Assembly (NCBI GenBank): GCA_963829055.1
Contig: CAWHHI010000003.1
Coordinates: 352,001 to 416,000, forward strand
Source: an uncultured Gemmatimonadaceae bacterium
GTDB lineage: Bacteria > Gemmatimonadota > Gemmatimonadetes > Gemmatimonadales > Gemmatimonadaceae
Reading direction: 5' to 3'
Length of the DNA stretch: 64,000 nt
The notes beneath the pieces are model-generated. The model had not been told where the DNA came from. It worked only from the letters and a program-made list of their open reading frames with translations, and did not search any database. Position 1 is the stretch's first letter. Each line of letters starts with the position of its first letter. Positions 34-60,812 of this stretch are shown in pieces. Made by a program: the position numbers and the translations under genes.

Positions 34-1146
34 TCATGCCGCCGCCCCCCAGTTGGTCGCGATGCACCAGCGCACGACGGCGTCGTAGTAGTCGAGAACA
101 TGCGGCGCCTCAATGCCGGCAGGCGCGAGCACCGCGCTCGCGTGACGGGCGTCGAAGATCTTCGGGTATGCCAGCTGGTACGCGAACGCCTGCACGGCGC
201 GCGTCGCCTGCAGCAGCACCTCGTTGCCCGCTTCCTCCACCGTGCGGACGAACAGCTCGTACGTCGTCGAGGTCCACGATCGCCGGCCGCGCGATGCTCC
301 GCTTGCGCCACGCAGGGCGGTGCCGCTCGAACGCCGCCGTGGTCGCATCGAGCAGTGCACCTAACGTGGCAGAGTTCGCCTGCGCCCGCGCACAGATGGT
401 ACGTGGCGCCGGCGCTGAACGCGTGCTCGAACAGGTGATGAGACGCGTCCGCCGCGAAGTCGACAGGAATGAGGTCCACGAGCGCCGACTCCTGTCCTGG
501 AACCATGGGCGCCAGGCCCTGGTACAGCAGGCGCAGCGCGTGGTGGACGGCGTTGAAACCGCTGACCGCGCCAGAGCGCGAGTCTCCGATGATGGTGCTC
601 AGGCGGTACAGCGCGATCGGCAGATCGCGCCATCGCGTCGCGCACCACCGCTTCCATCTCCGCCTTGGACTGCTCGTAGCTGTTGACGAACCCATCCTGC
701 GCCGCCGATGTCGCCCTCGCCGAAGCATCCCGTCGCTGCGCCCGGCAACGTAGACGGTGCTGAAGCACGCGATGCGCTCGAGGTTCGGGCACTCCTCGGC
801 GAAGGCGAGGAGCGCGCGCGTGCCCTCGACGTTCGTCGCGCGCGCGTCGGGCAGCGGCCGGTTGAACATCGTGTCCGCGGCGCAGTGGACGATGTCGGTG
901 ACACTCCCGCGAAGCGCCGCACGGTCGCCGGGAGCAATGCCTAACGTCGGACCCGCACGCAGATCGCCGGTCAGCGTGCTCACGCCTGGGCAGCGTTGCG
1001 CCGGCGCGGACGTCGAGATGCCGCGCGTCAGCACGACGACCGATGCGTCACCGGCGCTCGCGAAGCGGCGCGACGAGATCGCGACCTAACGTGCCGGTGC
1101 CGCCGGTCACGAGGATGGTACGTGGCTGATGCCGCGTCAGCGCCAT
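34..1146 (-). CDS. Extended SDR / fatty acyl-CoA (thioester) reductase-like protein, frameshifted
   Basis: ATG at 1146 gives MALTRHQPRTILVTGGTGTLG (Rossmann TGxxGxxG); pieces in several frames carry NVEGTRALL, FSTVYVAG and NSYEQSKAE (YxxxK); stop at 34 overlaps the ATG (37) of a further gene running off the window. Confidence 0.75.
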
Positions 1147-1159
1147 GACGCAACCACGG

Positions 1160-2130
1160 TCAGTGCTCGACGACCATGCAGCTCCAGTTCAGTCCGTAGC
1201 CGAACGTGAACAGGAGCAGCAGATCGCCTTTGCGCAGGAGCCCGGCGTCGGTCGCATCGCGCAGGTTGATGAAGTTGTCCGCCGCGATCGTGTGACCGAC
1301 CCGCCCGATGTTCGCGCTGAACAGCTTCTCGCGCGGACAGCCGATGAGGCCGAGCAGGATCTCCCAGCTGCGGAGCGAGACGTTATGCGGGATCACCCAC
1401 GCGATGTCATCGAGTGTCACGCCGGCCTTCCGGAGCGTCGTCTCGATCACCGTGCGGGCCGTGGGGAAGTACGCGGCGATGATCTCGTTCTCGAGCGAGC
1501 CGGAATCCCAGAACGCGCCCTTCGTCACCTGGTGCGTGGCGACGATGCGATTCCGCCCGGCTCTCGGCGCAGCAGCATTGCGCACGCGCCGTCGGACACG
1601 AGGTTGTAGACGACCTCGCGTGAGGCGTCGTGCGGCAGACGATCGGCGCTCACGCACAGCACGGTGCGCACGTCGGGCTCCGCGAGGAGCGTGGCGCGCG
1701 CGAGGCGGATGGCCGAGAAGATGGCGGCGCACCCTTGCTGGTCGATCCCGGCGACGGAGGCGCTCGTGAGATCGAACTCGCTCTGCAGCCGCGACACGGG
1801 ATACTTGAAGAAGTCCATGAACTCGCGCATGTGCAGCACGGAACCCGCGGGGCGGGCCGCGGTTTCCATGGTGGAGCTCGAGGTCAGTGCGCCCGCGTAG
1901 AGCACGAGGTCGATCTCGTCAGGCGACGTGCCCGTTTCTTCGAGCAGCGCGCGGACTGCGTGCATGGCCATGTCCACGTGACTGTCCGCTTCGGCCACGC
2001 GCGCCTGGCGGAAGCCGAAGCTCGCGAGCGCCGCCGCACCGCGGAGCGCACCGCGCTGTTCCAGCTCCGCGAGTGTCGGCGACGACGCCGGGAGCCAGTA
2101 CGTCAGCGCATCGATACCGACATCGGTCAC
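1160..2130 (-). CDS. 3-oxoacyl-ACP synthase III (FabH/KAS III-like) family protein, frameshifted near 1555
   Basis: QQGCAAIFSAI (catalytic Cys), VSDGACAMLL, VIPHNVS, GRVGHTIAAD, LFTFGYGLNWSC; probable GTG start at 2130. Confidence 0.8.
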
Positions 2131-2260
2131 ACCAGCTCTCGCTTGGGCCAAAAGGTTCGCGTAAGGTAGTAGCCGCATCGGCGAATTGGCGATAATGTCC
2201 GGCGCGAGCGACGCATCCACTATACGTCATCACACGTAGCAGAAATTTTCGGAGGGTTCG

Positions 2261-2695
2261 ATGGCCCGGGTAGCCAAGTCTGCTGTCATCAACGGCAACG
2301 CCGATCAGATCATCAACTACATCGCCGATGTGAAGAATCACCCCGCGTTCATCGGTCCGCTCAAGTCGATCGCGAACGTGAACGGCGATCCGAAGAAGTC
2401 CGGCACGTCGTGGGATTGGACGTTCGTCATGGCGGGCGTGGAGTTTTCAGGCCGCGCCGAGACGGTGGGCTTCGAGGCGGGCAAGACGTTCAGCTACAAA
2501 ACGACAACCGGCGTCGAGAGCACGTGGACGTACAGCGTCGAGCCGCAGGGCGGTGGGTCGAAGGTGACGGTGGACGTGTCGTACGAAGTACCGAAAACGC
2601 TGTTGTCGAAGATGCAGGCCGGTGTGGTCGAGAAGCTCAACGACGCCGAGGGGCTGCGCGCGGTGGAGAACCTGAAGGCGATTCTCGACCAGTAG
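2261..2695 (+). CDS. SRPBCC/START-fold (polyketide cyclase-like) protein
   Basis: 144 aa with GGAGG RBS; pattern INGNADQIINYIADVKNHPAF...WTYSVEPQGGGSKVTVDVSY...VENLKAIL. Confidence 0.8.
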   Translation: MARVAKSAVINGNADQIINYIADVKNHPAFIGPLKSIANVNGDPKKSGTSWDWTFVMAGVEFSGRAETVGFEAGKTFSYKTTTGVESTWTYSVEPQGGGSKVTVDVSYEVPKTLLSKMQAGVVEKLNDAEGLRAVENLKAILDQ

Positions 2696-2717
2696 ACTCC
2701 ACCAGTAGGCGAGAGTC

Positions 2718-3224
2718 GTGCTTGCCTGGGCGGCCGCGTACGTCGCGCTCGTGATCGTCGCGGCGGCGGTCGTCCTCGCTCGGCGCGAGCCGACGATCGT
2801 ACGCGGCGACTGGGTCTTTCTCCTCACATCGCTGTTCGTCCTCCTGGTGGCAATGGTCAGCGCGCTGCGCGGTAATCGCTTTTCGTTAGGCATGCTGCTC
2901 GCGACCATCGTCGTGCTGCTGGCGGGGTGGTTCGTACAGTCGCGCTGGTGGGTGATCGGCGCGCCGCCCGACGCCGTCACGACGACGATCGAGGAATGCG
3001 CGGCCCGACTCTGCGCGCCATCGGTGCGAGCGGCCGGTGCGTGTACCGTGACTGTGCCCGGCGGCGCCGTTCGGCTCCGCGTTGCGCCAGTCGGAGGCTC
3101 GACGGTGATCCAGTTCGTGGCGAGCAGCAGGCACAGGAAGGCGCATCTCTTCCGCCGGCTGCTGGCGAAACAGTATCGACCGGTGATGCCGACGCTGCGC
3201 GTCGGCGGGTCGAGCCATGGCTGA
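2718..3224 (+). CDS. Hypothetical membrane protein
   Basis: Three N-terminal hydrophobic segments; fills gap in operon. Confidence 0.55.
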   Translation: MLAWAAAYVALVIVAAAVVLARREPTIVRGDWVFLLTSLFVLLVAMVSALRGNRFSLGMLLATIVVLLAGWFVQSRWWVIGAPPDAVTTTIEECAARLCAPSVRAAGACTVTVPGGAVRLRVAPVGGSTVIQFVASSRHRKAHLFRRLLAKQYRPVMPTLRVGGSSHG

Positions 3225-3229
3225 CGACC

Positions 3230-4085
3230 ATGGCTGACGCGCGACGGCGCTGGATTCGGCTCGGCGTGCTGGTGGCGGTGCTCGCCATCGTCTTCGCCGG
3301 CATCCGCCGCCTCGCCTTCCTGGCGGTCGAGCGAGGCGGGATCGTCACCACGCCTAACGGGCCGGAGACGCCGGCGACGTTCGGCGCGCCGTTCACGCGA
3401 GTGGCGATCACGAGCGGCGACCGGATGCTCGACGCGACGCTCGTCCGTGCTGCGGGCGACTCCAGCCCGGCGCTGTTGATCTTTCACGGGACGGGCGAGG
3501 CCGTGTCGTTCTGGGCGGATACGCAGGCGCTGCTCTATCGCCACGGCGTCACGTCGATGGTCTTCGACTACTCCGGGTTTGGCCGCAGCACGGGCCGGCC
3601 CGACGGTGGCGCACCTCGAGGAAGACGCCGACGCCGCCTACGCCGAGTTCGTGCGGCAGGTCGGGCGACGGACGCGACCGTACGTGCTGGGGTACTCGTT
3701 AGGTACCGGCGTCGTGTTCGACGCCGTCGCTCGCTGGACGCCGCAACCCGCCGGCGTGGTCTTCGTTGCGTCGTACTCCTCGGCCCGCGAGGGCGCGGTC
3801 GCGTTCGGGCTCGTGCCGCACTGGGCGACGTTCCTCTTGCCCGACCTCTGGAACAACGTGCGCGACGCGCGGAACCTGCGTCAGCCGCTGCTGGTCATGC
3901 AGAGCGACGCCGACCAGCTCTTTCCGGTGAGCATGGCGAAGGCCGTCTACGACGCGGCGACGGTGCCCAAGCAGATGGTCGTGGTGCACGGCTATCGACA
4001 CGAGGACGGCCACCAGCGTCCGACCGACGACTACTGGGCGCCGGTCATTCGCTTTCTGACGACCGGCGTGCACTCAGGGGAGTGA
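3230..4085 (+). CDS. Alpha/beta hydrolase (ABHD-like), frameshifted near 3598
   Basis: N-terminal TM, LIFHGTGE, FDYSGFGRSTGRP, nucleophile elbow GYSLGTG, QSDADQL, GYRHED. Confidence 0.8.
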
Positions 4086-4558
4086 GCGGAGGAGCGACGG
4101 CGGCGGCGTGAAGCTTCCCCACGGCATCGAACGGCACGTTCGGGTCGCCGAGCGGCGTGTCGAGCGTGACGGTGCCCGTTAGGCGGTAGTCGACGGTGCC
4201 GTCCCGCGACGCGTCACGCGCCGCGGCGCGCAGACCCTGCCACGAGACGTCGACGGGCAGTTGCACCGTCGTGGAGTCGTGGGCGGGCAGCGTGAACGGG
4301 GCGGCGGATTCGTCCGCGCCCGACCTCGGTCGAGTCGGTGAGCACGAAGCGATACGTGGCGAGCTTGACCGGGAGCGGGTAGGGGTTCGGATTGCTGATG
4401 GACAGCGAGACCTCGATGGCCCCGCCAGTGAGGCCGACACTGTGGACCTTCACGCCACTCACGCCAATCACCGGCCTGCTGAACGCGCGCTCGGCGAGAC
4501 GGCTGCACGCCGGTATCGCCAGCAGGATCAGGAATGCAAGAGAACGTCGATTCATCAC
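4045..4558 (-). CDS. LEA type 2 (WHy) family lipoprotein, frameshifted near 4315
   Basis: Lipoprotein signal LLAIPAC, ISNPNPYPLP motif, TVQLPVDVSW, YRLTGTVTLDT; 3' end uncertain. Confidence 0.7.
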
Positions 4559-4624
4559 AGGAAAGTATCGCCGATCAATCGAGTGCAGGGATGCAGGCGA
4601 CGGTCATCGGATTTCCGCGCGGGC

Positions 4625-6598
4625 TTATCGGCCCCAGCGGTTGTTGGTCCGATCGATGTCCGGGAACGCGTTCTCTGGGTCGATCTCCACTTTCGTGATC
4701 TTCGGCGACGCCGCCACACGCAGCGTCGCGCGACGCTCGCCACGCAGCCACACGTCGACCGGAATTTCCCGCCGCTCCACGCGTGTCACGCCCTGACGGG
4801 TGATCGCCAGCCTAACGGGCATCGGGGCGAGGCCGCGATCCTCGACGGTGATCGTCGCGCTGTCGCCGCTCGACTGAACGTCCGTGATCGCCTGGTCGAG
4901 CGTCCACGTCTCGTAGAACCACGTGCGCCAGAACCACGACAGGTCGCGGCCACTCACGTCGTCGAACGTGTGGAAGAAGTCGTACGCCGTCGGATGCTTG
5001 CTTGATCCAGCGACGTCCGTACTCGCGGTACGCCTTCATGAACACGTCGTCCCCGAGCAGCGCGCGGAGCGCGACCATGTTCGTCGCCATCTTCTGGTAG
5101 CTCGCCACGCTGTACGCCGGCGTCCCCACGGGGTACAGATCGCCGTGACGCATGAGCTCCACCTCGTCGCCGCGTGCGCGCGAACCCGAGGTACGCGTCG
5201 CGCACGATGCGCTCGAGGTCGTAGCCGCCGAAGAACGAGCGCATCGCCTGCGCCTGATTGAAGCGCGTGAGCCCCTCGTCCTGCCAGGCGTGGCGCTTCT
5301 CGTCGGAGCCCACCTGCATCGGGAACCACATGTGCCCGAACTCGTGCACCGTCACCGAGTAGAGCGCCAGCGTGTCGCGCTGGCCACCGATGCACGTGAT
5401 CATCGGGTACTCCATCCCGCTGCACGACACGACGCCGTCGAGCGCCGTCATCTGCGGGTACGGGATACGGCCAGAGGAATCCCGACAGGAACTCGATGGC
5501 GTGCTGTGCATAACGCGCGGACTGGTCCCACGCCCACGCCACGCGCGACGGACGATAGAACGAGTTGATCGTCGCCGTGTCCCCGAACGCCGCCTGCGTC
5601 GCATCCCACAGGTACTTGTCCGACGTGCCCCACGCGAAGTCGCGCACGTTTCGGGCCTCGAACAGCCACGTGACCTTGCCGCCCGCGCCGAGCGTCGTCG
5701 ACTTGCCCGCACCGCGATCGCCTTCCGCGACGACATGCACGACCTCCGGCGAACGACGCGCTTCGGCGAGCCGCTCGCGCGTCGCGGGCGTCAACACCTC
5801 GTTCGCGTTCTTCAGCTTCGCCCGTCGCGCCGATGAGCCATCCGGCGGGAACGGTCAGCGCGACGTCGTAGTCCGCCCAGCCCATGTAGAACTCGGCGTT
5901 CCCCATGTACCGGTCGGTCTGCCAGCCGTTCACGTCGTCGTACACGGCGATCTGCGGATACCAGTACGAGATCATGAACACTTCACCGTCGGTGCCGGAG
6001 CGCGGTGCGCCGTCTGGCGGGATCGTGAACTTCCACGAGAACTCGAACTCCGCCGCGCCACCCGGGGCGAGCGGCAGTCGGCAGCTTGATCCATGCGATC
6101 GTGCCCTCGATCTGGAATCCCGCCTGCACGCTGGCGTCGACGTCGCGGAGCTGCGGCAGCGGGCGCCCCTGCGCCACCACGCGCGACAGCTCCATGCCAT
6201 TCGTCGGCGGCACCTCGACGTTCCGCGCCGCGCCCGGCGCGAACAGGTTCTGGTACAGGTGAACGGCAATGAGTCGGAGCGTGTCGGGCGACCGGTTCTG
6301 GTACCGCGATGCGCCCCTCGCCCGTTAGGCGCTTCGTCGCCGGGTCGAGCTCGGCCCGCAGCGCATAACGCGCGTACTGCGTCCAGTACTTCGGCCCCGG
6401 CTCACCCGTCCGCGTCCGCGTACCGCGCTCGACCGCGCGCCGGAACGCCGCCGTCTCGAACACCGGGTACGGAATGGGACGTCGCCCTGCGGCATCGCCC
6501 GGGTGTCCGCCGACAGGAGCTGGCGTTGGCCGGCGCGTGCCAGACGAGCACGCGAGCACCGTGGCGGACACGACCACGGCGATCATAACGCGCGGCAC
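4625..6598 (-). CDS. M1 family zinc aminopeptidase (lipoprotein), multiple frameshifts
   Basis: GMEYPM, HEFGH...WQDEG (HExxH plus downstream E), SYWYPQIAVYDD, ARNVRDFAW, DLSWFWRTWF. Confidence 0.85.
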
Positions 6599-6718
6599 AC
6601 GGCAGAGCTGGGCAGATGCGCGGGTGCAGCGGCTGTAGTCGTCATGACGCTCGGTCGGAGTTGACCCGGCGCGCATGCAGGCGGGCCAGAGGCCCGGGCA
6701 CCGGCAATCTACCGCCGG

Positions 6719-7897
6719 CTACCGTTTGCGGTACGTCACGCGGTCCCCGGTTCGGCTGTCGGTCAGGACGAGCGCATCCGCGCTCAACGATCCGCGTGCA
6801 TTCGTAGTCGTCGATTGGCCCGATCCGCTGGTGTCGAGGAAGTCGAGCCCGACAGCGTTCCCGTTGATCGAGCCGAACGCCTGCATGTTCCGCCCAGTCG
6901 ATGAGCGCCCGGATCCCGATACGGGGACGTCACCGGCGAACGTCGGCCCGGGGAAGAACGGCGACGAGTAGAGCGTCATCGTAAGCGGGCAGCGTCGACG
7001 AATTCCTGTCGCCGGTCCACGAGCCTTCGATCGGGGTGTCCACGTTCGCCGTGAGGTCGAGTGTCTTGGACATGATCGTCGCGACCGCGCCGAACAGGCC
7101 GACACCGCCCGTGAGCGTGTTGCCGCGCGTGTCATCGCCGAACGGATCGAAGCCGGCGACGTAGTAGTGGAAGTAGTTCGAGTCCACCGCGATGACGGCG
7201 AAGCTCTGCGGCACTCCGGGGAACATCGTACTCGCGCGCGAACGAGAATGACCACTCCGCGTCGTCGGGGTTTCCGGCGGCGCGCGCGAGGGGGAGGATG
7301 AGCTCCCGGTCGAGTGACACCGTGAACTGCTGGCGCCCGGTCCCGCTCCCCTCGTGCCGAAGCACGTAGCCGGCCGCGTTGCGGACCCCGGCGAGATTGA
7401 TGCGCAGCGTATCACGGTCCACGTTGAACGTGCGCCGCGCCGCGTCGACCGCTCCGCCCACCGGCACCGTCGTCTCACCGAGCACGACGCCGAGCGACGT
7501 CTCGATCCGCAACGTGTAGCGTTCGCCGGGCCGCACCCGGAGTACGTTAGGCGGCGCCGTCCCGGGCGAGCCGTTGGTGATGGTGACGCTCGTGACGCTG
7601 ATACACGCCGTCGTTCGCCACGCTCGGCACCGCGATGACCGAGTCCTGCCGCGGCCCGTAGATGACGACGCGCGCGTTCGTGATCGGCTCCCGCCCCGTC
7701 GGTGTGCCGGCCGCCGTCACGACCGAGCGCAGCGTGCGCTCGACGATGACGATCTGCTGCGTGGCCGTCGCGTTGAGCACCGCGTGCACGACCGCGCGCG
7801 GCTCGACGTCCGGCGCCGTCGTGTCCGCCAGCTCGCAGCCGGTCGCGAACGCGATGACGAGCGCGGCGCCACCCACGGTGGTCACGTTCCGGCGCAT
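6719..7897 (-). CDS. DUF4249-like lipoprotein partner of TonB receptor, frameshifted
   Basis: Lipobox FATGC, VVHAVLN, RPGERYTLRIET, DSNYFHYY, GGVGLFGAV; directly downstream of TonB receptor. Confidence 0.65.
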
Positions 7898-7899
7898 CG

Positions 7900-10280
7900 T
7901 CACCACTCCACCCGCATGCCGAACGACGGCAGGAACGGGAACTGCGACGCACCCTTCACGACCGGCGGGTCGACATTCGTCTCGAGCGTGTACAGGAACA
8001 CGTTCTTCCGGTTGAAGACGTTCACGACGTTGATGTACGGTCTCAGCGTCGCGCCTCCGACGTCGAACCGCCGCTCGGCGCTCAGGTCCAGGCGCCAGTA
8101 GAATGGAAATCGTTCCGTGTTTCGTCGCGCTGCGCACCATCTTCCTCGCCGTCGCTGCGCGGTCCGCCCCACGTGTTGCGGACGGGATCGTAGCGGTACC
8201 GGTTCATCACGCCGGCCCAGCCCGTGTACGGCGTCCCGGTGGCGACGCCGAGGTGGGTGCCTAACGCCCACCGGCTCTGCGGCCGCGCCTAGGCGGCGAC
8301 GACGTTCGCGTTATGCCGCCGGTCGTGCGCCGGCCAGTACGCCACATCGTCCCGCTCGCGCGTCGTCACGCCGTAGCTGTACGCGATCCAGCCGCTGAAG
8401 CCGTTGCGCTCGAGCTGCCGGAGGTAGACGTCCACGCCGTACGACCGGCCGTCGTAGTACCTGAGCAGCGACGGCCGGATGCGCGGGTCGACGGTGCTCG
8501 CCGGCTCCGAGAGGTTGTCGTACGTCTTGCCGTACGCCTCGACACGAAAGAAGCGCGAGCCCGACAGCCACCGCTCCGCTCCGAGTACCACCTGGTCCGA
8601 CGTCGATACCGGAATCGTCTTGTCGCTGCCTAACCAGAGATCGAACACACGGAGCGGCAGATCCTCGTTGCGCATGGCGCGCATCCACTGCGTGTAGCGG
8701 CCGCCGGCCGCCGTGATCGCCAGCTGCGGTGTCACGAAGTACTTCACCGACACACGTGGCGAGACGCCGAGCCAGTTCGCGCCGCCCACGTATTCACCGC
8801 GCAATCCGCCGCGCAGCGAGCCAGCGGTCGTTCGGCTTCCACACGTCTTCCGCGAACAGCGCGCCCATCGCCGGACGCTGGCGCATCGTCGTGTCGCCAT
8901 CGGTGGCGAGCGGGTCGGGGAACCCGATGTCGTCATTGTTGTCGCTCGTCACGGTCAGCTGCTCGCGATACGACGTGCGGTACGCGGACGCCTCGTACCC
9001 GGCGCTCAGCGTCTGATGATCGCGCGCGTGCGTGATCGAGCCCGCGAGCTGCACCTCGCTCACGCTCTGCGCGAGGTAGATCGTCTCGCCCGGCAGTCGA
9101 AGTGCGTGGCGAAGCGCGTGAACGCGAGCCGCTGCGACATCGTCGTGCGCGCGCCGAGCGGCTGATCCCACGTTAGGCCGACGACGCGATTGCCCCAGTC
9201 GAACGTGATCGTCTCGTCATCGTCGTCCACCGGGTCGAACGGCCCGCCGGGAATCGTGACCCTGCGGCGTCGACTCATCGATGTGGTAGAGCAGATCCTT
9301 CCCCGTGTATGCCGTCAGGCCGAGCGCGCCACCAGCGGGCAGCCGGAGCCGCGCGCGGAGCTGCGCGTCCTGGAAGTGATACGGAAAGTCGTTGTTCCCA
9401 CGAATCCACTCGATCGACCCTGTCGGCGTACGTGCGCCGCACGGCGACGTTCCACGACAGCTTGCCCTCGACCCGTCGCACCGCCCATGAACAGCGAGGA
9501 CGACAGGAGCGAGACCTCCGCGGTGCCGTGCGCGCCGTTCCGCGTCTCCTCGAGGCTCTTCACGTCGAGCACGCTCGAGAGTCGGCCGCCATAACGCGAC
9601 GGGAACGCGCCGGTGAGCACGTCCACGCCGCTCACGGCCTTGTCGATGAACGTCCCGAACAGACCGCCCAGATGGAACGGGTTGTAGATGGGGATGCCGT
9701 CGAGCAACACGAGGTTCTGATCCGCCTCGCCGCCGCGCACGTTGAAGCCGGCCGAGAAATCGTTGCGCGCGACGACGCCTGGCAGGAGCGCGACGGAACG
9801 GAGGACGTCGGCCTCGCCGATCGCCGGAACACGACGCACCTCCGCCCCGGAGATGCTCACGACACTCGGCGTCGCCTCCTCCTCGAACCGCACCCGCTCC
9901 GGCGATTTCGCCACCGTGCGCACGGGCGCGAGCGACTGGGGCAGCATGCGGACGCGGAGCGTGACGGTCACCGTGTCGTTCGAGCGAACGACGACGGCCG
10001 TGTCGACCGACTCGTAGCCCAGGAAGGTGGCGTGCAACTGGACGCGCCCCGCCGGCAGATCGGGAAACACGAAGTGGCCCGCGGAGTCAGCGCGCACGGC
10101 GCGGCGCGGGCGATCGATCCTGACAGTGGCGCGAATCGGAACGCCGGTCGCGACGTCCGTGATCGAGCCCATGAGCGCTCCGGTGGGCGCGGCCGCCTGA
10201 CGCGCGGCCGCGGGCTGCTGTGCAGCCGCGCCCGAAGCGGTAACAACGGCTATGACGAGCGCGACCGGAAATCGGTGCAT
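7900..10280 (-). CDS. TonB-dependent receptor with carboxypeptidase-like regulatory domain, multiple frameshifts
   Basis: Signal peptide, GEADVLRSVALLPGV, NVRGGEADQNLVLLDGIPIYNPFHLGG, YGGRLSSVLDV, C-terminal PSFGMRVEW. Confidence 0.85.
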
Positions 10281-10427
10281 GCGATGGACGCAGTGGGCGG
10301 CGGAGCGCGAGTCCTACCCGACGTACAACCCTTTGATCCGTCGATGCCCTTATGTACTTCCGCGAGGCGTGTGCGGCACGTGGTCACGTAATGCGGGCGT
10401 GATCTCGTCGGCTGTACATTCTTCCAC

Positions 10428-11117
10428 ATGTTCATCGGCCACTATGGCGTCGCCCTCGCCGCCAAGCGCGTGGCGCCACGTGTGTCGCTCGGGGTGCTCG
10501 TCGCAGCCGCGCAGCTCGCGGACCTCGTCTGGCCCATCCTGCTCATCCTCGGGGTCGAGCGCATCCGCATCACACCGAGCGACAATCCGTTTCTCGGCAT
10601 CACGTTCGAGTCGTATCCGTGGACGCACAGCCTTCTGGCCGCCATCGTCTGGGGCGCGCTCGCCGGCCTCGGCTACGCGGCGCTCCGGGGACGGCGCGCC
10701 GACGGCGTGGTCGTCGGTCTCGTGGTCGTGAGCCACTGGGTGCTCGACTGGATCACGCACGTGCCGGACCTGCCGCTGTATCCGGGCGGCGCCTCGCGTC
10801 GGGCTCGGGCTCTGGCGGTACCCCTCGGCCACCATGGTCGTCGAGGCGCTCGTGTTCCTGCTCGGTCTCGCTCTCTATTGGCGCTTTACCCGCCCGGTGG
10901 ACCGGACGGGAAGGTGGGCGTTGTGGGCGTTCGTCATCGTTGCTCGTCGTCCTGACCCTTGCGAAGCATCTACAGTCCTCCGCCCACGAGCGCGAACGCG
11001 ATCGGCTGGGCGGCGTTAGGCGGCTGGCTCATCCCCGTGTTCGGCTGGTGGGTGGATCGACACCGACAGCCGGTATCTTCGTCGCCCCTGGCCCCGCACC
11101 TCTCGTTGCACACATGA
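10428..11117 (+). CDS. Metal-dependent hydrolase-like membrane protein, frameshifted
   Basis: MFIGHYGVALAAK, QLADLVWP, YPWTHSL, SHWVLDWITHVPDLP, GLGLW; C-terminal WWVDRHR in another frame. Confidence 0.75.
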
Positions 11118-11195
11118 GCTACCTGCTCGCGCTCGTGCGTGGCGCTTTCGGCATCGTTGACCAGCGCGTGATGCTTCGCGCGTGACACGTCCCCT

Positions 11196-51713: not shown

Positions 51714-51804
51714 CGGCACCGGGGACTGGGGACTCGGGACTGGGAAACGCGTAATTCCGATATCGATCGCGTTCACCAACCGCGTTCGTTCACTCACCCG
51801 TTAG

Positions 51805-51932
51805 GCGAGCCCAGTGCCACCACCGCCCGATTCCATAACGCATGCTCGCCGCGTGACTTAGCCATCCACCCGACACCCTGCGAGGGTTCGAGTCCTCCCG
51901 ACTCCGGGACACGCACCATCCCAATGTCGGGA
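51805..51932 (-). promoter_or_regulatory. Sigma54 -24/-12 promoter with two upstream palindromic activator sites
   Basis: TGGCAC-N5-TCGC (GG-N10-GC) at 51819-51805; TCCCR-N4-CGGGA at 51896-51909 and 51919-51932. Confidence 0.65.
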
Positions 51933-51974
51933 TCGCGCGCCGTTATCCCCAGTCCCCAGTCCCAGTCCGTCCCG

Positions 51975-52667
51975 CTATGGCAGAAACCGATACCCTGTTT
52001 TCCAGACGGTAGTGATGTGCCGCGGCGACGCCGGATTCGGCTCGAGCTTCCGGCGAAGCTCGGCGATGTGCGTATCGATCGTCCGGCTCACCACTGATGC
52101 ATGATAGCCCCACACCGTCTTCAACAGCTCGGCGCGCGAGACCACCTGCCCCGGCCGCTGCACGAGCGCGAGCAACAGTTCGTACTCCTTGGGCGAGAGC
52201 TCCACCGGACGCCCGTTGCGCCTCACTACGCGCGCCACCGGCTGGATCTCGATATCGCCGAACCGTGACGCGTCCGCGGCCTGGCCTTTCACCCCCGTCG
52301 AGGGCGCCGCGCGTCGAAGCACCGCCTCCACCCGCGCCACCAGCTCCAGCACGCCGAACGGCTTCGTCACGTAATCGTCCGCGCCGAGCCGGAACCCCGT
52401 GACCTTGTCCGCCTCCTCGCCGCGCGCGGTGAGAATCAGCACCGGCACCTGCGAGCCGTCCTCCCGGACCGCGCGCAGCACGCGATACCCATCCATTCCC
52501 GGCAACATCAAGTCGAGGATGATCAGGTCGGGCGACACGGTCCGCGCTTCGCGCAGCCCCGACGGGCCGTCGCTCGCCACGACCACCTCGTAGGACGCGA
52601 TCTCGAGACTGTTGCGGAGCCCGAACGCGAGATCGGCGTTGTCTTCGACGATCAGAATCCGTTTCAT
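51975..52667 (-). CDS. OmpR-family response regulator
   Basis: ILIVEDN, DLMLPGMDG, GADDYVTKPF, SRTIDTHIAELRRKLE, GYRF. Confidence 0.95.
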   Translation of the reverse strand: MKRILIVEDNADLAFGLRNSLEIASYEVVVASDGPSGLREARTVSPDLIILDLMLPGMDGYRVLRAVREDGSQVPVLILTARGEEADKVTGFRLGADDYVTKPFGVLELVARVEAVLRRAAPSTGVKGQAADASRFGDIEIQPVARVVRRNGRPVELSPKEYELLLALVQRPGQVVSRAELLKTVWGYHASVVSRTIDTHIAELRRKLEPNPASPRHITTVWKTGYRFLP

Positions 52668-52685
52668 GACAGCATCATCGCAAAG

Positions 52686-54410
52686 TCATCCCAACAACGA
52701 ATGCGCCCGCGCCCGTACCCGCGTGTACGGTGAGGAATCCTTCTCGCGCGCGTCGCCCGGCTGACCACCCGCCACGGCGGCCTGCAGCGTCACCACGAAG
52801 CTCGCACCGCCGCCCGGGGCGTCATGTACGGTCACGGTGCCACCCTGCGCAGTGACGAGCTCACGCACGACAGCCAGCCCGATGCCGTTGCCGGAAATTC
52901 CCGCTTCCACCGCGTGATCGAGGCGGCGGAACGGCTCCCAGATGCGTGCCTTGTCACGGGTGGGAATGCCCGTCCCCTGATCGTCGACCCACACCTGTAC
53001 GCGGCCGTCGGCAGCCACGCGCGTTCCGGCGGTGATCGTCTGTCCGGCAGGTCCGTACTTCACCGCGTTGTCCAACAGATTGAGCAACACCTGACGCAGC
53101 GCGTCACGATCGCCAAGCGCGACGACGTCACCGCCGTGCGCCGTGCGCACCGTCGCGCCCCGCGCGGCAGCGAGCGGCGCGAAGCTCTCGACGACCTCGT
53201 CGACCAACACCGTCAGGTCGAGCGACTCCAGCGACACCCGCGGCGCCAGTCGCTCGGCCCGGGAGAATTGCAGGATGTTCTCGACCAGATGCGAGAGCCG
53301 CCGCGCCTCCTGGTCGATGATCGCCACCGACCGCTGGCGCTCGTCGTCACTCCGTACCCAGCCGAGTCGCAGCATCTCGGCGAACATGCGGATCTGCGCG
53401 AGTGGCGTCCGCAACTCGTGCGACACGCCCGACACCAGCTCGCTCTTGACCCGTGCCAGTTGCCGCTCGCGGTGTAGCTGCAACAACGAGACGATGACGA
53501 GCCCCGCGCTGAGCGTGATGAGCGCGAGCACGAATTGCGACCGGTTCCACGTCCAGTTGCCGATGGCCACCCGCGACGCGAACGCCGGCCGCATGGCCAC
53601 GCGCACGGCGAAGCCCGTGAACGCGCCGGTCATGCCTAACGTCGCAGCCGGCCGCAACGCCTTCGTGACCCCCGAGCGGAACACGAGGCGATCGCCGGCG
53701 CCGGTAACGCTCAGCGCGAGCGCGGAGTCCACGGGCATCGCGGTCGATGCCGTCGGGGGAAGCAGCGCGCGCGATGCGAGCACCGCCGGGAATACGGCGC
53801 GGCCCGCGGACGCGACGTCGAACGCATACCCGTACGCGTTCCGCGGCGCGCCCGTGCTATCCATCTCAGCACCGCCGGCGAGCATGTAGGCGATCGCCAT
53901 CGTTCCGTCACCGGGCAGGCGCGCGATGACCGGGTCGCCGATCACTGCGCCCTCGGCGATGCCAGCGCGGATTCTTCCGAGTACCACCTCGCCAGTGTTC
54001 CCCGCCGGCGGTTCTGGCATCTCGTCCCCCACGGCCCCGATTACCACGTTTCCGCCCGCGATGTCCACGGCGAACGTGAAGCGAACGTCGGGTACCGCCA
54101 CGCATCCGCAGCGACGCGCGCTACGAATACCCTCGGCAACGAGGAGGGACGGTGCCGTCGCCGTGGTGTGTCCGGCCGCGAAGGAAACGGTTGGCGCGAG
54201 AACGCGCCGAGCGGCGCGCTCCAGTTCCGCGTTGGCCTCCCGCGCGAACGTCCACGCCGCGAACCGCGCATGTGAGAGCAGCGCCCGCTGCGCCGCGGAC
54301 TCCTGCGCACACACGGCGTAGTAGACCTGATAGGCGGCGACCGACGCGGCGGTGAACGTGCACACCACGACCGCTATCGTCGCCCGCGACCGGCGGATGC
54401 CTGCAAGCAC
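52686..54410 (-). CDS. Membrane sensor histidine kinase
   Basis: Two TM segments, VSHELRTPL, NLLDNAVKY, DQGTGI, GNGIGL. Confidence 0.9.
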   Translation of the reverse strand: MLAGIRRSRATIAVVVCTFTAASVAAYQVYYAVCAQESAAQRALLSHARFAAWTFAREANAELERAARRVLAPTVSFAAGHTTATAPSLLVAEGIRSARRCGCVAVPDVRFTFAVDIAGGNVVIGAVGDEMPEPPAGNTGEVVLGRIRAGIAEGAVIGDPVIARLPGDGTMAIAYMLAGGAEMDSTGAPRNAYGYAFDVASAGRAVFPAVLASRALLPPTASTAMPVDSALALSVTGAGDRLVFRSGVTKALRPAATLGMTGAFTGFAVRVAMRPAFASRVAIGNWTWNRSQFVLALITLSAGLVIVSLLQLHRERQLARVKSELVSGVSHELRTPLAQIRMFAEMLRLGWVRSDDERQRSVAIIDQEARRLSHLVENILQFSRAERLAPRVSLESLDLTVLVDEVVESFAPLAAARGATVRTAHGGDVVALGDRDALRQVLLNLLDNAVKYGPAGQTITAGTRVAADGRVQVWVDDQGTGIPTRDKARIWEPFRRLDHAVEAGISGNGIGLAVVRELVTAQGGTVTVHDAPGGGASFVVTLQAAVAGGQPGDAREKDSSPYTRVRARAHSLLG

Positions 54411-54513
54411 AGGGCGAGTGGTTGAGGTCCGGACGCCTCCGCGACGTCACCGCCGCCTGGCGCCCCGATCGGCAATGTACAGCGAGTTACGGCTGGATGC
54501 GGACTACCACGGA

Positions 54514-56772
54514 CTACATGCGCACCCGGTGACGGGGGATGGCGTCGTGGGGAACCGCGATCATGGAGGCCCGCGGCGTCACCGACGGCCCGCCATCGAC
54601 CACGACCGGCGCCTCGATCGGTAAGGTAAGTGTGAAGATCGACCCGCGGCCAACATCGCTTCGCGCCGTGAGGTCACCGTTCATCGCGCGAGCGAGATGG
54701 CGACTGATCGCGAGACCGAGCCCGGTGCCTTCCGTCGTACGCGTCAGGTCCATCTCCACGCGGGTGAACGGCTCGAAGATCGACTCGAGCTTCTCGGGCG
54801 GAATGCCGTGCCCGGTGTCGCTCACGCGGACCTCCACGTGGCCGTCCCGGAGATCGCTCGCCAGCCCAACCCGACCGCCCGGCGCCGTGTACTTGATCGC
54901 GTTCGAGAGCAGGTTGAGCACGATCTGCTCCACCCGCGCACGGTTGCTGTAGGCCATGAGCTCGACGGCGGCGGGGTTGTAGATGTACGTGAGGTTCCGC
55001 GCCCTGAGCTGCGGCGCGATCAGCGCCTCGAGACTGCCTAACGTCTCGTGCACCGGCATCGGACCGAGGTCGATGTCGGCGGGCACGCCGTGCTCGAGCC
55101 GCGAGAGATCCAGCAGGTCCTCGATGATCCCGAGGAGATGGCGCTGGCTGCGACGGATGCGCCCGAGCTGCTCGCGCTGCATGTCGCTCACCGGTCCGCT
55201 GATGCCGAGCTCCAGCAGCTCCGTGTATCCCGCAATGGCGTTGAGCGGCGTCCGCAGCTCGTGCGACATCATCGCCAGAAACTCCGTCTTCGCACGATTC
55301 GCCGCCTCGGCGTCCGCGCGCGCCGATTGCTCGGCCGCGAAGAGCCGCGCGCGTTCGAGCGCCTGCGCGCACTGCTGGCCGAGCGTGCGGGTAAACGTGA
55401 CATCGTTCTCGTCGAACCCGCGACTGCTGTTGAAGCTGAAGCTCAGCGACCCGAGCGGCTTCCCGTCGACGACCATTGGGGTCACGATCATCGCGCGCAC
55501 GTTCACGCGCTCGAGGACGCTGGAGAGATCCGGATATCGGCTGGCGATCTCGGCGGATGACGCGAGCAACACCGGCTCGGTGCCGCGTACCGCATCGGCG
55601 AGCGGCACGCGGCTGGTCACCGGAAAGCGACGCCACGCGTCGGCGACGTCGGCTGGCAATCCGCTTACCGCCATGAGATCGAGCATCACCGCGTCCGGCG
55701 TCAGCACCGCGATCTCGCTCCCCGTCGCGCCGAGCGCCGGGAGGCCTTCGGATACGATCACGCGCGCGACCGCGATAGGCGTCAACGCACTCGAGAGCGC
55801 CTCTGCCGTGCGCCGCAGACGACCTGCGCGATCGGCGGCACGCTCCGCCACCGCCCGCGCCGACTCGGCGCGCACCAGCAATTCGTTGCGCTCGGCGTCG
55901 GTCTTTCGTACCACCGAAGCCGCACGCATGACGAGCAGGAGGAATGTGATCACGACCGCGCCGACGAACGCGCTGACGCCGCCCTCGCGACTTACCCAGT
56001 TCGTGTCGCTCGCGAGCAGCCATAACGCGCCCAATCCGATCGGCACAATGAGCGCGGCAGGAATGAGGCGCCTCACCATCGCACCGCTTGGATCGGCGAC
56101 TGCGATGTACGAGACAGCGCCCTGGCTCGGCCGAACGAACAGGATCCCGACGCTCAGAATGCAGAGCATGATGGCCGTGAGCAGCGCCATGCCCGTTCGC
56201 GGCCCGAAGCTGTACAACCCGCGCACGCCGTACATGTAGCCCACGATCGCGATGAACGCGATCACCGCGCCGACCGCACTCAGCCCTTCCGACGGTCGGC
56301 GGTCCCGCTCGGTCTTCACATCCAGGAGGAGCAGCGCCAGCCCGTCGACCATCATCACGACCGCCGAGTTGATCGCCGGACGTCCCGGTGATGTCCCCTC
56401 CCATCCCTTCACGCTGTTTCCGAACAGCAGCAGATCAATGCCGAGGTCGACAGTGAGTGCGCGCTCGATCACGAACAGAGTACCTAACACCGTGAGCGCG
56501 GCTGCGAGCCAAAGTGTCACGGTGTTGAACCGCGCGTCCCGCTCGGCGCGAACAGCGGTCAGGACCGCCAGGCCGCCCAGAATGGCGGCGACGGCGGTAT
56601 TGGGGATCGTCGGGATCAGCCCGGGAATGATCGTCCGGAGCGCGTCGATGTCGCGCCACCAGCCGATCAGCACGAGAACGCCGATGACCGCCGACAACAG
56701 GCCGGCGACGATCGATACCAGTTCGAAGGCGGCGACCGCGCGTAACGGACGCTGTGCTGGCACTGATTTCAT
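54514..56772 (-). CDS. Multi-TM GAF-domain sensor histidine kinase
   Basis: Several TM helices, GAF (QQCAQALERARL), MSHELRTPLNAI, NLLSNAIKYT, GTGLGL. Confidence 0.9.
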   Translation of the reverse strand: MKSVPAQRPLRAVAAFELVSIVAGLLSAVIGVLVLIGWWRDIDALRTIIPGLIPTIPNTAVAAILGGLAVLTAVRAERDARFNTVTLWLAAALTVLGTLFVIERALTVDLGIDLLLFGNSVKGWEGTSPGRPAINSAVVMMVDGLALLLLDVKTERDRRPSEGLSAVGAVIAFIAIVGYMYGVRGLYSFGPRTGMALLTAIMLCILSVGILFVRPSQGAVSYIAVADPSGAMVRRLIPAALIVPIGLGALWLLASDTNWVSREGGVSAFVGAVVITFLLLVMRAASVVRKTDAERNELLVRAESARAVAERAADRAGRLRRTAEALSSALTPIAVARVIVSEGLPALGATGSEIAVLTPDAVMLDLMAVSGLPADVADAWRRFPVTSRVPLADAVRGTEPVLLASSAEIASRYPDLSSVLERVNVRAMIVTPMVVDGKPLGSLSFSFNSSRGFDENDVTFTRTLGQQCAQALERARLFAAEQSARADAEAANRAKTEFLAMMSHELRTPLNAIAGYTELLELGISGPVSDMQREQLGRIRRSQRHLLGIIEDLLDLSRLEHGVPADIDLGPMPVHETLGSLEALIAPQLRARNLTYIYNPAAVELMAYSNRARVEQIVLNLLSNAIKYTAPGGRVGLASDLRDGHVEVRVSDTGHGIPPEKLESIFEPFTRVEMDLTRTTEGTGLGLAISRHLARAMNGDLTARSDVGRGSIFTLTLPIEAPVVVDGGPSVTPRASMIAVPHDAIPRHRVRM

Positions 56773-57386
56773 GAGCGGCCGAGCTCTTCCCCATGCCGAG
56801 AGCGGACGCCTCGGTCTGCCAACAGTCGTCACATCGGTGAGAGCGCGCAAGGCACGTAACCGGGAGCCCAATGTTTGCGGACCCCGTGTGCGATAAGCGT
56901 GACACTGCGCACACTGCGATTGTCACGGATCGCATGATTCTTTGGTAAAACGCTTCACCGTCGGTCGGCGTCACACATCACAACACATCACAGGGCGCGG
57001 CAAACCAGTTTTCCGCCCCAGTCGGGCGAGAGTGGACTGATGGGCATCACGTTCCACCCTGACTTTGCACTGCGGCGAGCAGCGCGGTCGATCACGGCGT
57101 GGTGAGCGGAATCCCTGCATCCCAACGTTGATTCTGCGCGGATCGGATCCGGGCTTTCGTCGCGGGTCGGCTCGCTGCAGCACGTCGGGTCATCGATAGG
57201 TCGATTTACCCACGCGCCGCAGTCGGTGTCGTCGCGATCATAGTCATAGATCGCGGCCGGTCTCGGGGAGCTCCCGACACTCCGCGCGCCAGTCCACCGC
57301 ACGAACTCCTCACAAGCCGCGGCTGACTTCCGTTCGAACGCTGAGTCACCCGCTGCAAATCGTCGGACGCCAATCGGAGCCTCGTC

Positions 57387-58335
57387 ATGAGTCACGCTCT
57401 TTCCCATCGCGCGCACGCTGCCTCGCGCCGCGGTATCGCTATCGTCGCCGTCGCCGCTCTGTCCCTGCCAATTCACACCGTCTCGGCCCAATTCGGTGGG
57501 CTCGTGAAGAAGGCCCGCGACAAGGCCGTCGAGCAGCAGATCGAGAAGCGCGTCCCTGGCGCGTCCGCGTCGAATCCCGGTGCGCCTCCAAAGTTCGATG
57601 ACGTAACCGTCGAGCTCACGGCCGATCGCGTCGGACAGATTCTTCGCGGTTTCGCGGCCGGCCGCGCGATTCTCGACGGCACGAATGGCGGCGCGAGCCG
57701 CGCATCACTCGTCGCCCGCCGCGATGAGGCAAGCCGCAAGCGAGAGGCACTCAACGACGCGAACATGAAGGCGTTCAACGCCTACACCAACAAGCGCGAC
57801 GAGAGCCAGCGCTGCCGCAGCGACGCCATGTACAAGTCGCGCGAACAGCGTCAGAAAGGTGAGGAAGAACGAAACAAGCAGATGGCGTCTAAAGCGATGA
57901 ACGACCCGGCGTTCCGCGACAAGGCGATTAGCCATCGGTCAGAAGATGGCTGCCGCGCAACAGCGCGGTGACACGGCGGAACTCCGTCGCCTCGGCGCGG
58001 AGTTGGGGATTGAGCAGTACGATCCGAAGCCGGATACGCTCGCTGCCGACAAGGCGTGCGGACGCGAGCCCGCCAAGCCCGCGGCCATGGTGGAGGTGGA
58101 GCAGCTCGACGCGCAGATGAACACGCTGAGCGATCAGATCCGCCAGCTCGAGGAGAAGTCGGCCGCGACTGAACAGAAAGAGAGTGGGCTCAACGAGCGC
58201 CAGTTCTTCATGGCCCGCGAGCGCATCGAGGCGTACCTCTCCGCGATGAAGTACAAGTCGCAGCCGCGTGGCTTCAGCGGTCCGGAGCTCGAGGCGTTAG
58301 GCGCCCGGCGTGCCGATCTCGAGAAGGTGATGTAA
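57387..58335 (+). CDS. Secreted helical hypothetical protein, frameshifted near 57935
   Basis: Signal peptide then AQFGGLVKKARDK; coiled-coil-like; two ORF halves. Confidence 0.65.
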
Positions 58336-59316
58336 TGCCCTTCGGGGCCGTGTACCGAGCCACTCGCGTTGCGGCGATCGCCCTCGTGGCCGTCGCCGCA
58401 ACGCCGCCGCGGACGGAGCCAGGTCTCCTGTCCCGCGGCGGGCTCCACGTCTTCGCTCCCACCCTCGGCGCTCTCGGTGTGGACCGGACGCGCCTGGCGT
58501 GAGTGGTGGCGCTCGGATGCGGCTCCGGATCGATGGACCGCGCCGCATAACGCGATCGCTGACGCCATTCAGTGGAAGCGGGCGGCCGACGGCGTCGAGT
58601 GGGGAGAGCTCCGCCTCGCCGGCGCCGGAGAGGCCCGCCGTCTCCGCGCAGTCGCGGTGCGCATTGACCCGCACCTGGTGCGGCTCCGCCTCGACACCGC
58701 GTTCACTGCGGGCGGCGAGCGCGCCGCCTGGACGGTCGAGGGCGCGCGCGCCGATGCGATTGTCGCCGTGAACGTCGGTCAGTTCATCCGGACGCTGCCG
58801 TGGGGCTGGGTCGTGCTTGACGGGCGGGAGTTCCTCGCGCCCGGCCGCGGCCCGCTGTCCACCGCGGTCGTTGTCGACTCGTCAGGCGGCGTTCGCTGGA
58901 TCGGCCCGGACGGGCTCGCGGATCCAGCCGTTAGGCGCGGCGTCGCCGCGGCGTTCCAATCGTACCCGACGCTGCTCACGGCCAACGGCGACGTGCCGGA
59001 CGCGCTCCGATCCCCCGGACGCGGCATCGATGTCGAGCACCGGGACGCGCGACTCGGCATTGGCGCCCTCGCCGACGGACGCCTGCTCATCGTCCTCACC
59101 CGCTTCGATGCGTTCGGCGAATCGTTAGGCTCGATCCCGTTCGGCCCGACGATCCCCGAATTCGCGGCCCTGATGGGCGCCCTCGGCGCCCGACAAGCCG
59201 TGGCGCTCGACGGCGGCATCTCCGGCCAGATGCTGGTGCGCGAACAGAATGGCACCACTCACGCCTGGCGCGGCATGCGCCGCGTCCCGATGGCGCTGGT
59301 CGCGCTCCCCCGCTGA
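58335..59316 (+). CDS. Phosphodiester glycosidase (NAGPA/DUF2233) family protein, frameshift near 58430
   Basis: AVNVGQF, FQSYPTLL, HRDARLGIG, LGARQAVALDGGISGQM. Confidence 0.78.
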
Positions 59317-59322
59317 GTCCTT

Positions 59323-59448
59323 CGTCGTGTCGTCGTGTCGTCGTGTCGTCGTGTCGTCGTGTCGTCGTGTCGCCGTGTCGCCGTGTCGCCGTGTCGCTGA
59401 TGGCTGATGGCTGATGGCTGATGGCTGATGGCTGATGGCTGATGGCTG
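59323..59448. repeat. Compound tandem array: (CGYCGTGT)x9 followed by (GCTGATG)x7
   Basis: Directly visible between convergent stop codons. Confidence 0.95.
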
Positions 59449-59452
59449 TTTC

Positions 59453-60812
59453 CTAGTACTTCAGCAGATAGTTGTCCACTTCCCAGCGAGTGACTTGTGT
59501 GATGTAATCGCGCCACTCCTGCCGCTTCGCCTCGATGAAGTTCGTCGCGATGTGCGGGCCTAACGCGGCAGTGATCACGTCGTCCTTCTCCAGCTCGTCC
59601 AGCGCCTCGTTCAGGTCGTGCGGGAGATCGTCGATCCGCAGCCGCCGCTTCTCGCGGAAGCTCATATCCCAGATGTTCGTGTTCACCGGCTCACGGTGGT
59701 CCGCCGCCGTCTCCACCCCGTCGATCCCCGCCGCCAGCATCACCGCGAGCGCCAGATAGGGATTCGCCGCCGGGTCGGGCATCCGCAGCTCGACTCGCGT
59801 GCCGAGTCCGCGCCGGTCCGGCACGCGGATGAGCGGCGACCGGTTCCGCATCGACCACGCGACGTTCACCGGCGCCTCGTACCCCGGCACCAACCGCTTG
59901 TACGAGTTCACGAGCGGATTCGTCACCGCGCACATGCCGCGCGCGTGACGCAGAAGCCCGCCGATGTAGTGCAGCGCCACGGGTGACAGCTGCCACTCGG
60001 CTTGTGGCTCCCAGAACGCGTTCTGGTCTCCACGGAAGAGCGACTGGTGCGTGTGCATCCCGCTGCCGTTCTGTCCGAAGATCGGCTTCGGCATGAACGA
60101 CGCGACGCAGCCCGAACTGCCGCGCCACGTGCTTCACCACGAACCGGAACGTCGCGATGTTGTCCGCCGTCTTGAGCGCGTCGGCGTACCGGAAGTCGAT
60201 CTCGTGCTGGCCGTGTGCGACCTCGTGGTGCGCCGCCTCGACCTCGAAGCCCATCTGCTCGAGAACGTCCACCATCGCCCGCCGCGCATCCTCGCCGAGA
60301 TCTGCCGGCGCGAGGTCGAAATAGCCGCCGACGTCGTTGGTGATCGTCGCCGCCTCGCCCTCGGCACCTGGCTTGAACATGAAGAACTCGGCTTCCATCC
60401 CCGCGTTCATCGTGTAGCCCATCTCCGAGGCACGCGCGATCTGCCGCTTGAGCGCCGCCCGTGGGTCACCGTCGAACGGCTGCCCGTCCGGCCGGTTGAT
60501 GTCACAGATGACCCGCGCGACGCGATTCTCGGCGTCACCCCACGGGAACAGCTGAAACGTCGAGAGGTCGGGCGCGAGCAACATGTCCGACTCCTCGATG
60601 CGCACGAACCCTTCGATCGACGACCCATCGAACATGATGTCCCCGTCGAGCGCCTTCTCGAACTGCGACGCGGGCAGCTCGACGTTCTTGTTCACGCCGA
60701 GAATGTCGGTGAACTGCAGACGAAGGAATCGCACGTTGTTCTCGCGCGCGAGCACGAGGATGTCGGCCTTCGTCGCGCCATTCAGGTCGCGCAGCGGTGA
60801 GCGATGTGTCAA
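59453..60812 (-). CDS. glnA: Glutamine synthetase type I, frameshifted near 60105
   Basis: [73 protein letters not shown]. Confidence 0.95.

Follow-up and report, generated by a model that had tools for sequence, protein, structure and literature searches.

A 64,000-nucleotide stretch of the genome of an uncultured Gemmatimonadaceae bacterium (contig CAWHHI010000003.1, positions 352,001 to 416,000; hereafter the window) is filled with dispersed copies of a short DNA word, GTTAGG on one strand or CCTAAC on the other, and this pattern is a sample of a real, genome-wide and strongly kept word. On comparative sequence analysis and structure prediction, we think there is an even chance that the word is the binding site of a small, basic AP2-like protein that would act as a sequence-directed nucleoid protein. 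Counting both strands, the window contains 73 CCTAAC hexamers (39 + 34), 63 CCTAACG, 64 GCCTAAC and 55 full GCCTAACG octamers (31 + 24), about one hexamer per 0.9 kb between the first copy at 360 and the last at 59559. An initial annotation, made from the letters of the window alone, had estimated about 70 CCTAAC, 60 CCTAACG and 55 octamers and had placed its copies correctly to within one base; its rough expectation of about 2 octamers agrees with the values computed under a zero-order model (2.4) and an order-3 Markov model (2.6). Its remark that no copy follows 59.6 kb is true of the window but does not mark a boundary, since the next copy lies 591 bases past the window end; 107 of the 7,082 gaps genome-wide are at least 4.4 kb long. 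What it missed is the genome- and family-wide scale of the word and its identity with the core box of integron attC sites.

The window belongs to contig C3 in the 7.78 Mb assembly G000 (20 contigs, 86% complete), which contains 7,103 CCTAAC hexamers and 5,004 GCCTAACG octamers at a hexamer density of 0.75–1.22 per kb on all 20 contigs. Within our called genes, which cover just 73% of the genome, 4,441 hexamers and 3,156 octamers are observed, against 492–588 and 131–173 in five within-gene shuffles of synonymous codons, so that this 8- to 20-fold excess is not explained away by codon usage; a model trained on word-free codons expects 25.5 octamers where 3,141 are found. Fifty-two of the 73 window copies are wholly intragenic and are read as TTA-GGN (27), CCT-AAC (11), CTA-ACN (8) or GTT-AGG (6), which substantiates the early claim that they force rare codons in several frames. 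Genome-wide, the word accounts for 68% of TTA codons and for 39% of Pro-Asn pairs, and 242 of the 1,771 TAG and 310 of the 854 TAA stops of called genes are located in it, including one TAG in the window that had been recognized from the start (Table 1). The observed-to-expected ratio of Pro-Asn is 1.38–1.98 in word-rich proteomes versus 1.10 in word-poor ones. Density is flat across codon-bias classes (0.69–0.92 per kb) and is 2- to 3-fold higher at and directly after stop codons. The four reading frames, both strands, the rare codons and the conservation described below uphold the original view that the force acts on DNA rather than on protein.

The word signal is Y-GTTAGG-Y with C favoured at either end, and flanking positions beyond −2/+7 carry no information except codon phase, which rules out a longer hidden element; no Rfam match to a structured RNA is found. 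CGTTATGC is the sole one-base core variant that behaves like the word, being 5.8-fold enriched genome-wide and kept apart from canonical copies; CGTCAGGC is 2.4-fold enriched, yet is not excluded near canonical copies. Copies repel each other regardless of orientation: the pair density g is 0.27 under 50 bp and returns to about 1 by 350–400 bp, opposite-strand pairs under 50 bp stand at 0.16–0.22 of expectation, and control hexamers show no short-distance dip. No helical phasing near 10.5 bp is present, and autocorrelation in 1-kb bins over contigs longer than 400 kb (a method different from that published for HIP1, applied to a draft genome) gives no positive long-range period and three weak negative lags. 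With the leading strand called from GC skew, 1,942 of 3,703 (52.4%) lie on it; this near lack of polarity justifies the initial setting aside of Chi and KOPS (FtsK-orienting polar sequences), whose strong replication-direction skew the word does not share. A dif-like site lies at the GC-skew switch (C16:560788–560817, locus L201), with a xer-type recombinase gene some 19 kb away. GTTAGG is also a rotation of the vertebrate telomere unit, which we treat as a coincidence.

A basecalling artefact, raised as a possibility at the outset, is ruled out, as the word is equally abundant in relatives' fragmented assemblies and in finished records of plasmids from the cultured Gemmatirosa kalamazoonensis KBS708 (0.72–0.80 hexamers per kb; these records are not counted as independent of the sampled genomes). 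The stretch is also covered by short-read contigs of four runs from soil or sediment; these reveal one-base indels of the assembly among the differences listed, which is not a test of each copy, and near-identical DNA is found in metagenomes of soil, rhizosphere and sediment. Across 40 relatives and a 400-genome sample of the phylum, a minority of genera, all of one order, are rich in the octamer, at about 35 to 1,250 per Mb; in most others it falls below its reversed control. Samples of 40–60 kb from seven word-poor genomes contain no substitute words.

The word arises through base changes in aligned codons of rpoB and other orthologues (for example CCG CTC GGC to CCG TTA GGC), and among the 217 sites that are not shared, 6 are close to a gap, which equals the background of 1.4–4.5%. 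Nine of the 31 rows of the rpoB alignment are wrong-strand frames and were left out, and its tree is a quick tree only. Within the genus, 88 of 149 copies are shared at orthologous positions, while four-fold sites are only 51–53% identical, and TTA is retained at 40 of 50 codons, CTC at 141 of 197 and CTT at 7 of 42; these orthologue counts exclude the pooled word-poor group, and the sharing counts are not independent, as orthologue regions overlap between relatives. Something holds the copies in place, and selection and drive both predict such upkeep.

A scan for clusters of the word located a candidate reader gene at C3:271467–271769, about 80 kb upstream of the window on the same contig, which encodes a protein of 100 amino acids with a net charge of +18. 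The sole GTTAGG-NN-GTTAGG tandem of the genome lies about 50 bp before this gene, and the 260 bp upstream of it contain four copies (variant included), the maximum among 6,826 called genes; six congeners have three to five copies there. In the best 80 of the 213 homologue loci found, the hexamer is present within 400 bp upstream of 69, at 4.7 per kb versus 0.58 elsewhere (8-fold), and the reader homologues average 1.91 upstream copies versus 0.25 for other genes of the same loci (7.5-fold). In an unbiased k-mer scan of 78 of these promoters CCTAAC comes out on top, being present at 68 of the 78 loci against a background of 21% of windows, and where the flanks have fewer than 0.3 copies per kb, 18 of 25 loci keep the upstream word (23 sites versus 1.2 expected). 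GCCTTACG and GCCTGAC are also strongly enriched upstream of the gene (L252–L331) and are perhaps weaker sites. Neighbouring genes vary and are of ordinary types, and the gene is ruled out as an integron cassette, just 1 of 125 loci being cassette-like. Among 24 relatives in family f1 the gene is present in every one of the 12 whose octamer density is 37 per Mb or more and in none of the 12 at 14 or less (0/11 without G013, which like G085, G203 and G124 is a word-poor row; no other claim depends on these four). By hand tally of the phylum sample, it is found in 10 of 14 rich f1 genomes, with two strong matches and one weak match in 80 poor ones, and in 7 of 7 rich f2 genomes.

The core of the candidate protein is modelled as three strands and then a helix (predicted local distance difference test score, pLDDT, 94.5), predicted to form a three-stranded antiparallel sheet packed on the helix as in the AP2 domain. 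The AP2 domain of PfSIP2 matches this model with a Z score of 6.5 and a root-mean-square deviation of 2.6 over 55 aligned residues. The best structural matches are three chains of the Toxoplasma mitoribosome (Z 7.0–7.8), which could not be mapped to named proteins; that mitoribosome is described as containing AP2 proteins (PMC11652630). A paralogue matches Pfam AP2 with an E value of 0.0008 and 20.1 bits, below the cut-off of 33.3, and among Atlas neighbours 10–15% of members carry PF00847. To our knowledge the target word bears no relation to known AP2 sites. The traits of a nucleoid-associated protein in the candidate are limited to its small size and its charge.

The model that we prefer builds on the observed word, spacing, conservation, upstream clustering and gene distribution, and on a predicted fold. 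The protein would read (C)GTTAGG(C/T) through its β-sheet, its Lys/Ala-rich tails would grip flanking DNA, and it would probably repress its own promoter. A site every few hundred bases would be weakly selected for, which would make copies by point substitution and keep them, and a nearby second site would add little. Resident phages would copy the mark, and word-rich lineages that have no such protein would likely possess a second, stricter reader. Among the roles considered in the initial annotation, a nucleoid-protein site now has the most evidence, and for a modification target no supporting evidence was found.

Five viral contigs (63–72% GC) carry 14–36 dispersed hexamers in 13–20 kb, and four of them have terminase and portal genes; phage structural regions reach 0.7–1.8 hexamers per kb. 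Four of the contigs were chosen because of a two-copy pattern, and of the 80 loci counted the majority are not rich. One phage with terminase and portal genes encodes a homologue of the candidate reader (L364:3453–3756) with two word copies upstream. In viral contig L400 the TAA stop of several genes in a row lies inside GCCTAAC, and 16 of its 19 copies are on one strand.

Several results weigh against the nucleoid-protein model. A Pfam search of the candidate protein gives no match, AP2 (PF00847) included, a profile search among solved structures gives none for it, Foldseek gives none under an E value of 0.001, its best TM-scores falling on Toxoplasma mitoribosome chains, and all structural Z scores are under 8, the caution line of the tool. 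What the promoter cluster shows is a gene responsive to the word, and another reader could cause the same; the coincidence of the word with the attC box is also left unexplained. Searches with profiles A1, A2 and Pfam AP2 did not find the gene in G304, G240, G297 or G401, which have 600–970 octamers per Mb (G304 is 100% complete, and 150 of its 170–250 candidates were scored). The gene was likewise not found in the intermediate f3 genomes G036, G038 and G040, and a hand tally places it in 30 of 159 word-poor f2 genomes; it is thus neither necessary nor sufficient, because it was not found in four rich genomes and is present in many poor ones. A stricter spelling in those four rich genomes hints at a second reader. 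All 17 rich gene-bearing genomes tested tolerate CGTTAGGT (0.08–0.42 of canonical) and CGTTATGC (0.05–0.39); in the four rich f1 genomes that have no such gene the spelling is strict GTTAGGC and the two variants do not rise above background (0.003–0.007), and plasmid 1 of KBS708 is strict too (72 of 72 copies end in C). A spectrum that differs where the protein is missing is as expected from a second reader; but two of the f3 genomes with no gene match are clearly of the tolerant spelling, which a second reader does not explain, and the four strict genomes represent just two genera, kin that are not independent.

As for a strict-spelling reader, no convincing candidate came from profiles A1, A2 or Pfam AP2. 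The genes beside tandem clusters in these four genomes are, among those listed, mutually unrelated. One of them, next to a five-copy cluster of G304, is ParB-like, and nothing closely matching it was found in G000 or in four other genomes. Same-strand tandem clusters of three to seven copies are common in G304, mostly just past gene ends (e.g. L365:2021–2072 and L367:1970–2035), and it has 84 close pairs versus 26 in G000; on its 21-kb contig, 20 kb contain 20 copies, of which four seem to belong to a duplicated part.

The main rival to the nucleoid-protein model is uptake drive, in which the word would be a third family of DNA-uptake sequences: a surface receptor would prefer word-bearing DNA, and biased uptake with recombination would spread the word by molecular drive. 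Such a preference may originally have served to forage for integron cassettes, which have two copies each. Such an account fits much of the pattern, as the density of about 0.9 per kb, the non-palindromic word in both orientations, the even spacing, the origin by substitution and the enrichment of encoded peptides are all in line with the DNA uptake sequences (DUS) and uptake signal sequences (USS) described in PMC2817400. G000 also has comEC with three prepilin-like genes, its foreign-looking blocks have no copies, and transformation in Vibrio is described as supplying cassettes to chromosomal integrons (PMC12614218). However, comEC is present in 67 of 69 other genomes, rich and poor alike, and no word-specific receptor was identified; no inverted pairs are found at gene ends and close opposite-strand pairs are depleted, where frequent dyad pairs are described for DUS and USS (PMC2817400); the candidate reader has no visible signal or pilin motif in its sequence; an exclusion range of about 350 bp would require very short fragments; and uptake predicts neither promoter clustering nor phage carriage. 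We regard it as unlikely, though deserving of serious attention.

Less probable still, in our judgement, is an intracellular self-tag, by which a nuclease or silencer would spare bound DNA, or recombinational repair would favour it, and unmarked DNA would be lost; the AP2-like protein could then be the reader, with a protective and not an architectural role. Diminishing-return spacing, mimicry by phages (one with its own reader homologue) and two word-free blocks of 48 and 37 kb (C6:1–55000 and C11:1–44000) agree with it. These blocks contain second copies of aroC, ftsK and folD at 46–59% identity and differ in composition, and they therefore look foreign or chimeric; they end at a repeated gene, and it counts against the self-tag that they sit at contig ends and may be assembly chimeras. 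They are likely chimeric contig ends or recent transfers, and the word serves as a contamination marker. Against the self-tag, too, no partner nuclease was identified, the neighbours of the reader gene are variable and ordinary, and polarity of the Chi type is missing.

The attC R box has the consensus GTTRRRY / RYYYAAC, and in this order of bacteria the word is identical to it, attC hairpins beginning with GCCTAAC and ending with CGTTAGGC. The AAC of attC is described as the cleavage triplet (10.1101/2022.09.11.507474). Paired-box attC arrays are present in G027, G025 and contig C20 of G000, and at three loci of word-poor relatives hairpins are formed by 22 of 28, 6 of 6 and 9 of 10 box pairs. 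Many of the copies listed for word-poor relatives are the two ends of one attC hairpin per cassette. G000 has a chromosomal integron (C20:119000–209000, L072), with intI at 208041–208958 and attC-like hairpins scattered over 90 kb; a perfect 52-bp hairpin lies at 163143 within it. An integron integrase or other tyrosine recombinase could thus be imagined to write the word, the copies being secondary-site insertion footprints or targets kept for the integrase, and IntI is described as inserting cassettes at GWT sites genome-wide (10.1101/2022.09.11.507474). We consider this very improbable. Copies lie in intact core genes with no excess of indels, none of the 7 box pairs in the window has an attC-like fold (45 candidates genome-wide), intI scores above cut-off in 24 of 41 relatives irrespective of word count and occurs in 4 of 5 rich genomes, other GTTRRRY words are not enriched, and the reader gene is not a cassette. 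The insertion-footprint version is largely refuted. Intermediate word counts are not due to cassette arrays either, with 1 close box pair in 5 genomes (spacing of 40–70 only).

Least probable of all is an origin of the word with no selection, through a DNA methyltransferase or another modification combined with biased repair, as has reportedly been proposed for HIP1. A non-palindromic hexamer with A in fifth place does resemble the targets of BREX (bacteriophage exclusion) and type IIG systems, and some one-off neighbour words are depleted (0.16–0.26 at position 2); but N6_Mtase, N6_N4_Mtase and C5 methylases were not found in G000 (86% complete; BREX, MmeI and Eco57I families not profile-searched), C5 methylases occur in 0 of 4 of the richest genomes, and six methylase candidates picked by motif are other proteins. 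KBS708 carries the word, yet its methylome from SMRT (single-molecule real-time) sequencing lists only RGATCY, ATGCAC and CCAGN7TCA (PMC3974934), a negative that is weaker for G000 because KBS708 has the strict spelling and G000 is incomplete.

A wider scenario, which we find possible but doubtful, is that several Gemmatimonadales lineages domesticated an AP2-fold protein as a sequence-directed chromatin protein and rewrote thousands of codons to provide it with one site per kilobase, that a second group of lineages converged with a stricter reader, that the attC box was the original target, and that phages mimic the mark. If the AP2-like protein of the preferred model is the reader, this would be an undescribed bacterial way to mark and package a chromosome, and an AP2-fold protein would join the bacterial nucleoid proteins. 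A literature search, with subscription journals mostly outside its coverage, found no description of the word, and genomes filled with a short word are known from few bacterial groups only (DUS/USS, HIP1, Chi). A candidate reader, a graded series of genomes that starts at none and reaches 1,250 octamers per Mb, a pair of spellings that split with the presence of the reader, phage mimics and the cultured KBS708 (strict) are all available, and selection for binding sites versus molecular drive is therefore directly testable.

The window features are collected in Table 1. The REP-like (repetitive extragenic palindromic) elements are often clustered and have about 700 core copies genome-wide, and the 10-mer AGTCCCCAGT of the short tandem runs occurs 212 times in the genome. 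Two genes are split by frameshifts; the breaks in the SusC-type receptor are likely assembly errors, because short-read contigs do not have the single bases at 22031, 23215 and 24515–24653.

Table 1. Features of the window (positions are those of the 64,000-nucleotide stretch)
Feature	Position	Strand	Remarks
GTTAGG/CCTAAC, 73 dispersed copies, 55 full CGTTAGGC/GCCTAACG	360..59566	both	mostly within ordinary genes
CGTTAGGC copy supplying a stop codon	18493..18500	+	TAG 18496-18498 ends ORF (open reading frame) 15661-18498
ADOP-family permease gene	19021..21741	+	ordinary host with five copies: 19108, 19395, 19701, 20325, 21043
Variant CGTTATGC/GCATAACG, seven copies	1381, 5508, 6363, 8309, 38159, 46453, 58545		span 1381..58552
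REP-like palindromic elements	26479-26610, 28304, 36393-36530, 37409-37575, 42028-42235		start with GTCATTCCGAGC or GTCATCCCGAG
Short tandem runs GACTGGGG/CCCCAGTC	46231, 46770, 51947, 60818, 60948		intergenic
SusC-type receptor gene	21838-24574		split by frameshifts
Glutamine-synthetase-like gene	59453-60812		split by frameshifts

The pattern of the word resembles that of an uptake sequence or of HIP1 (highly iterated palindrome 1), and it lacks the dyad pairs of the former and the palindrome of the latter. The DUS of Neisseriaceae and the USS of Pasteurellaceae are likewise described as non-palindromic, present at 0.8–0.9 per kb in both orientations, more evenly spaced than random, made by substitution and enriching the encoded peptides (PMC2817400). 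The word is unrelated to them in sequence and shorter (6–8 nt), and unlike them it is carried by phage structural genes and clustered before a small, predicted cytoplasmic-type DNA-binding gene. HIP1 of cyanobacteria, GCGATCGC, is similarly described as a hyperabundant octamer conserved at orthologous sites with a proposed role in nucleoid structure, its reader and purpose being given there as still open (PMC5861425); it is palindromic and periodic at 10–90 kb in the same source, whereas CGTTAGGC is not its own reverse complement, has no link to a methylase that we could find and has a candidate reader. The dispersed copies also differ from attC sites in being single boxes with no partner arm, hairpin or cassette. 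Like the candidate protein, the AP2/ERF–ApiAP2 and integrase arm-binding domains have a three-stranded sheet and a helix (predicted for the candidate) and invariant Gly and Arg residues, and the arm domain of the HPI integrase matches the candidate core with a Z score of 4.3; unlike AP2/ERF–ApiAP2 proteins, the candidate is a stand-alone bacterial protein of 65–120 amino acids with Lys/Ala/Arg-rich tails that falls below the Pfam AP2 cut-off. A parallel to the proposed nucleoid-protein role is ParB of Pseudomonas aeruginosa, described as a sequence-specific nucleoid-associated protein on hundreds of dispersed parS half-site heptamers that are also short and non-palindromic (PMC5961200); here the copies number thousands, and the candidate is predicted to be AP2-like and not a ParB.

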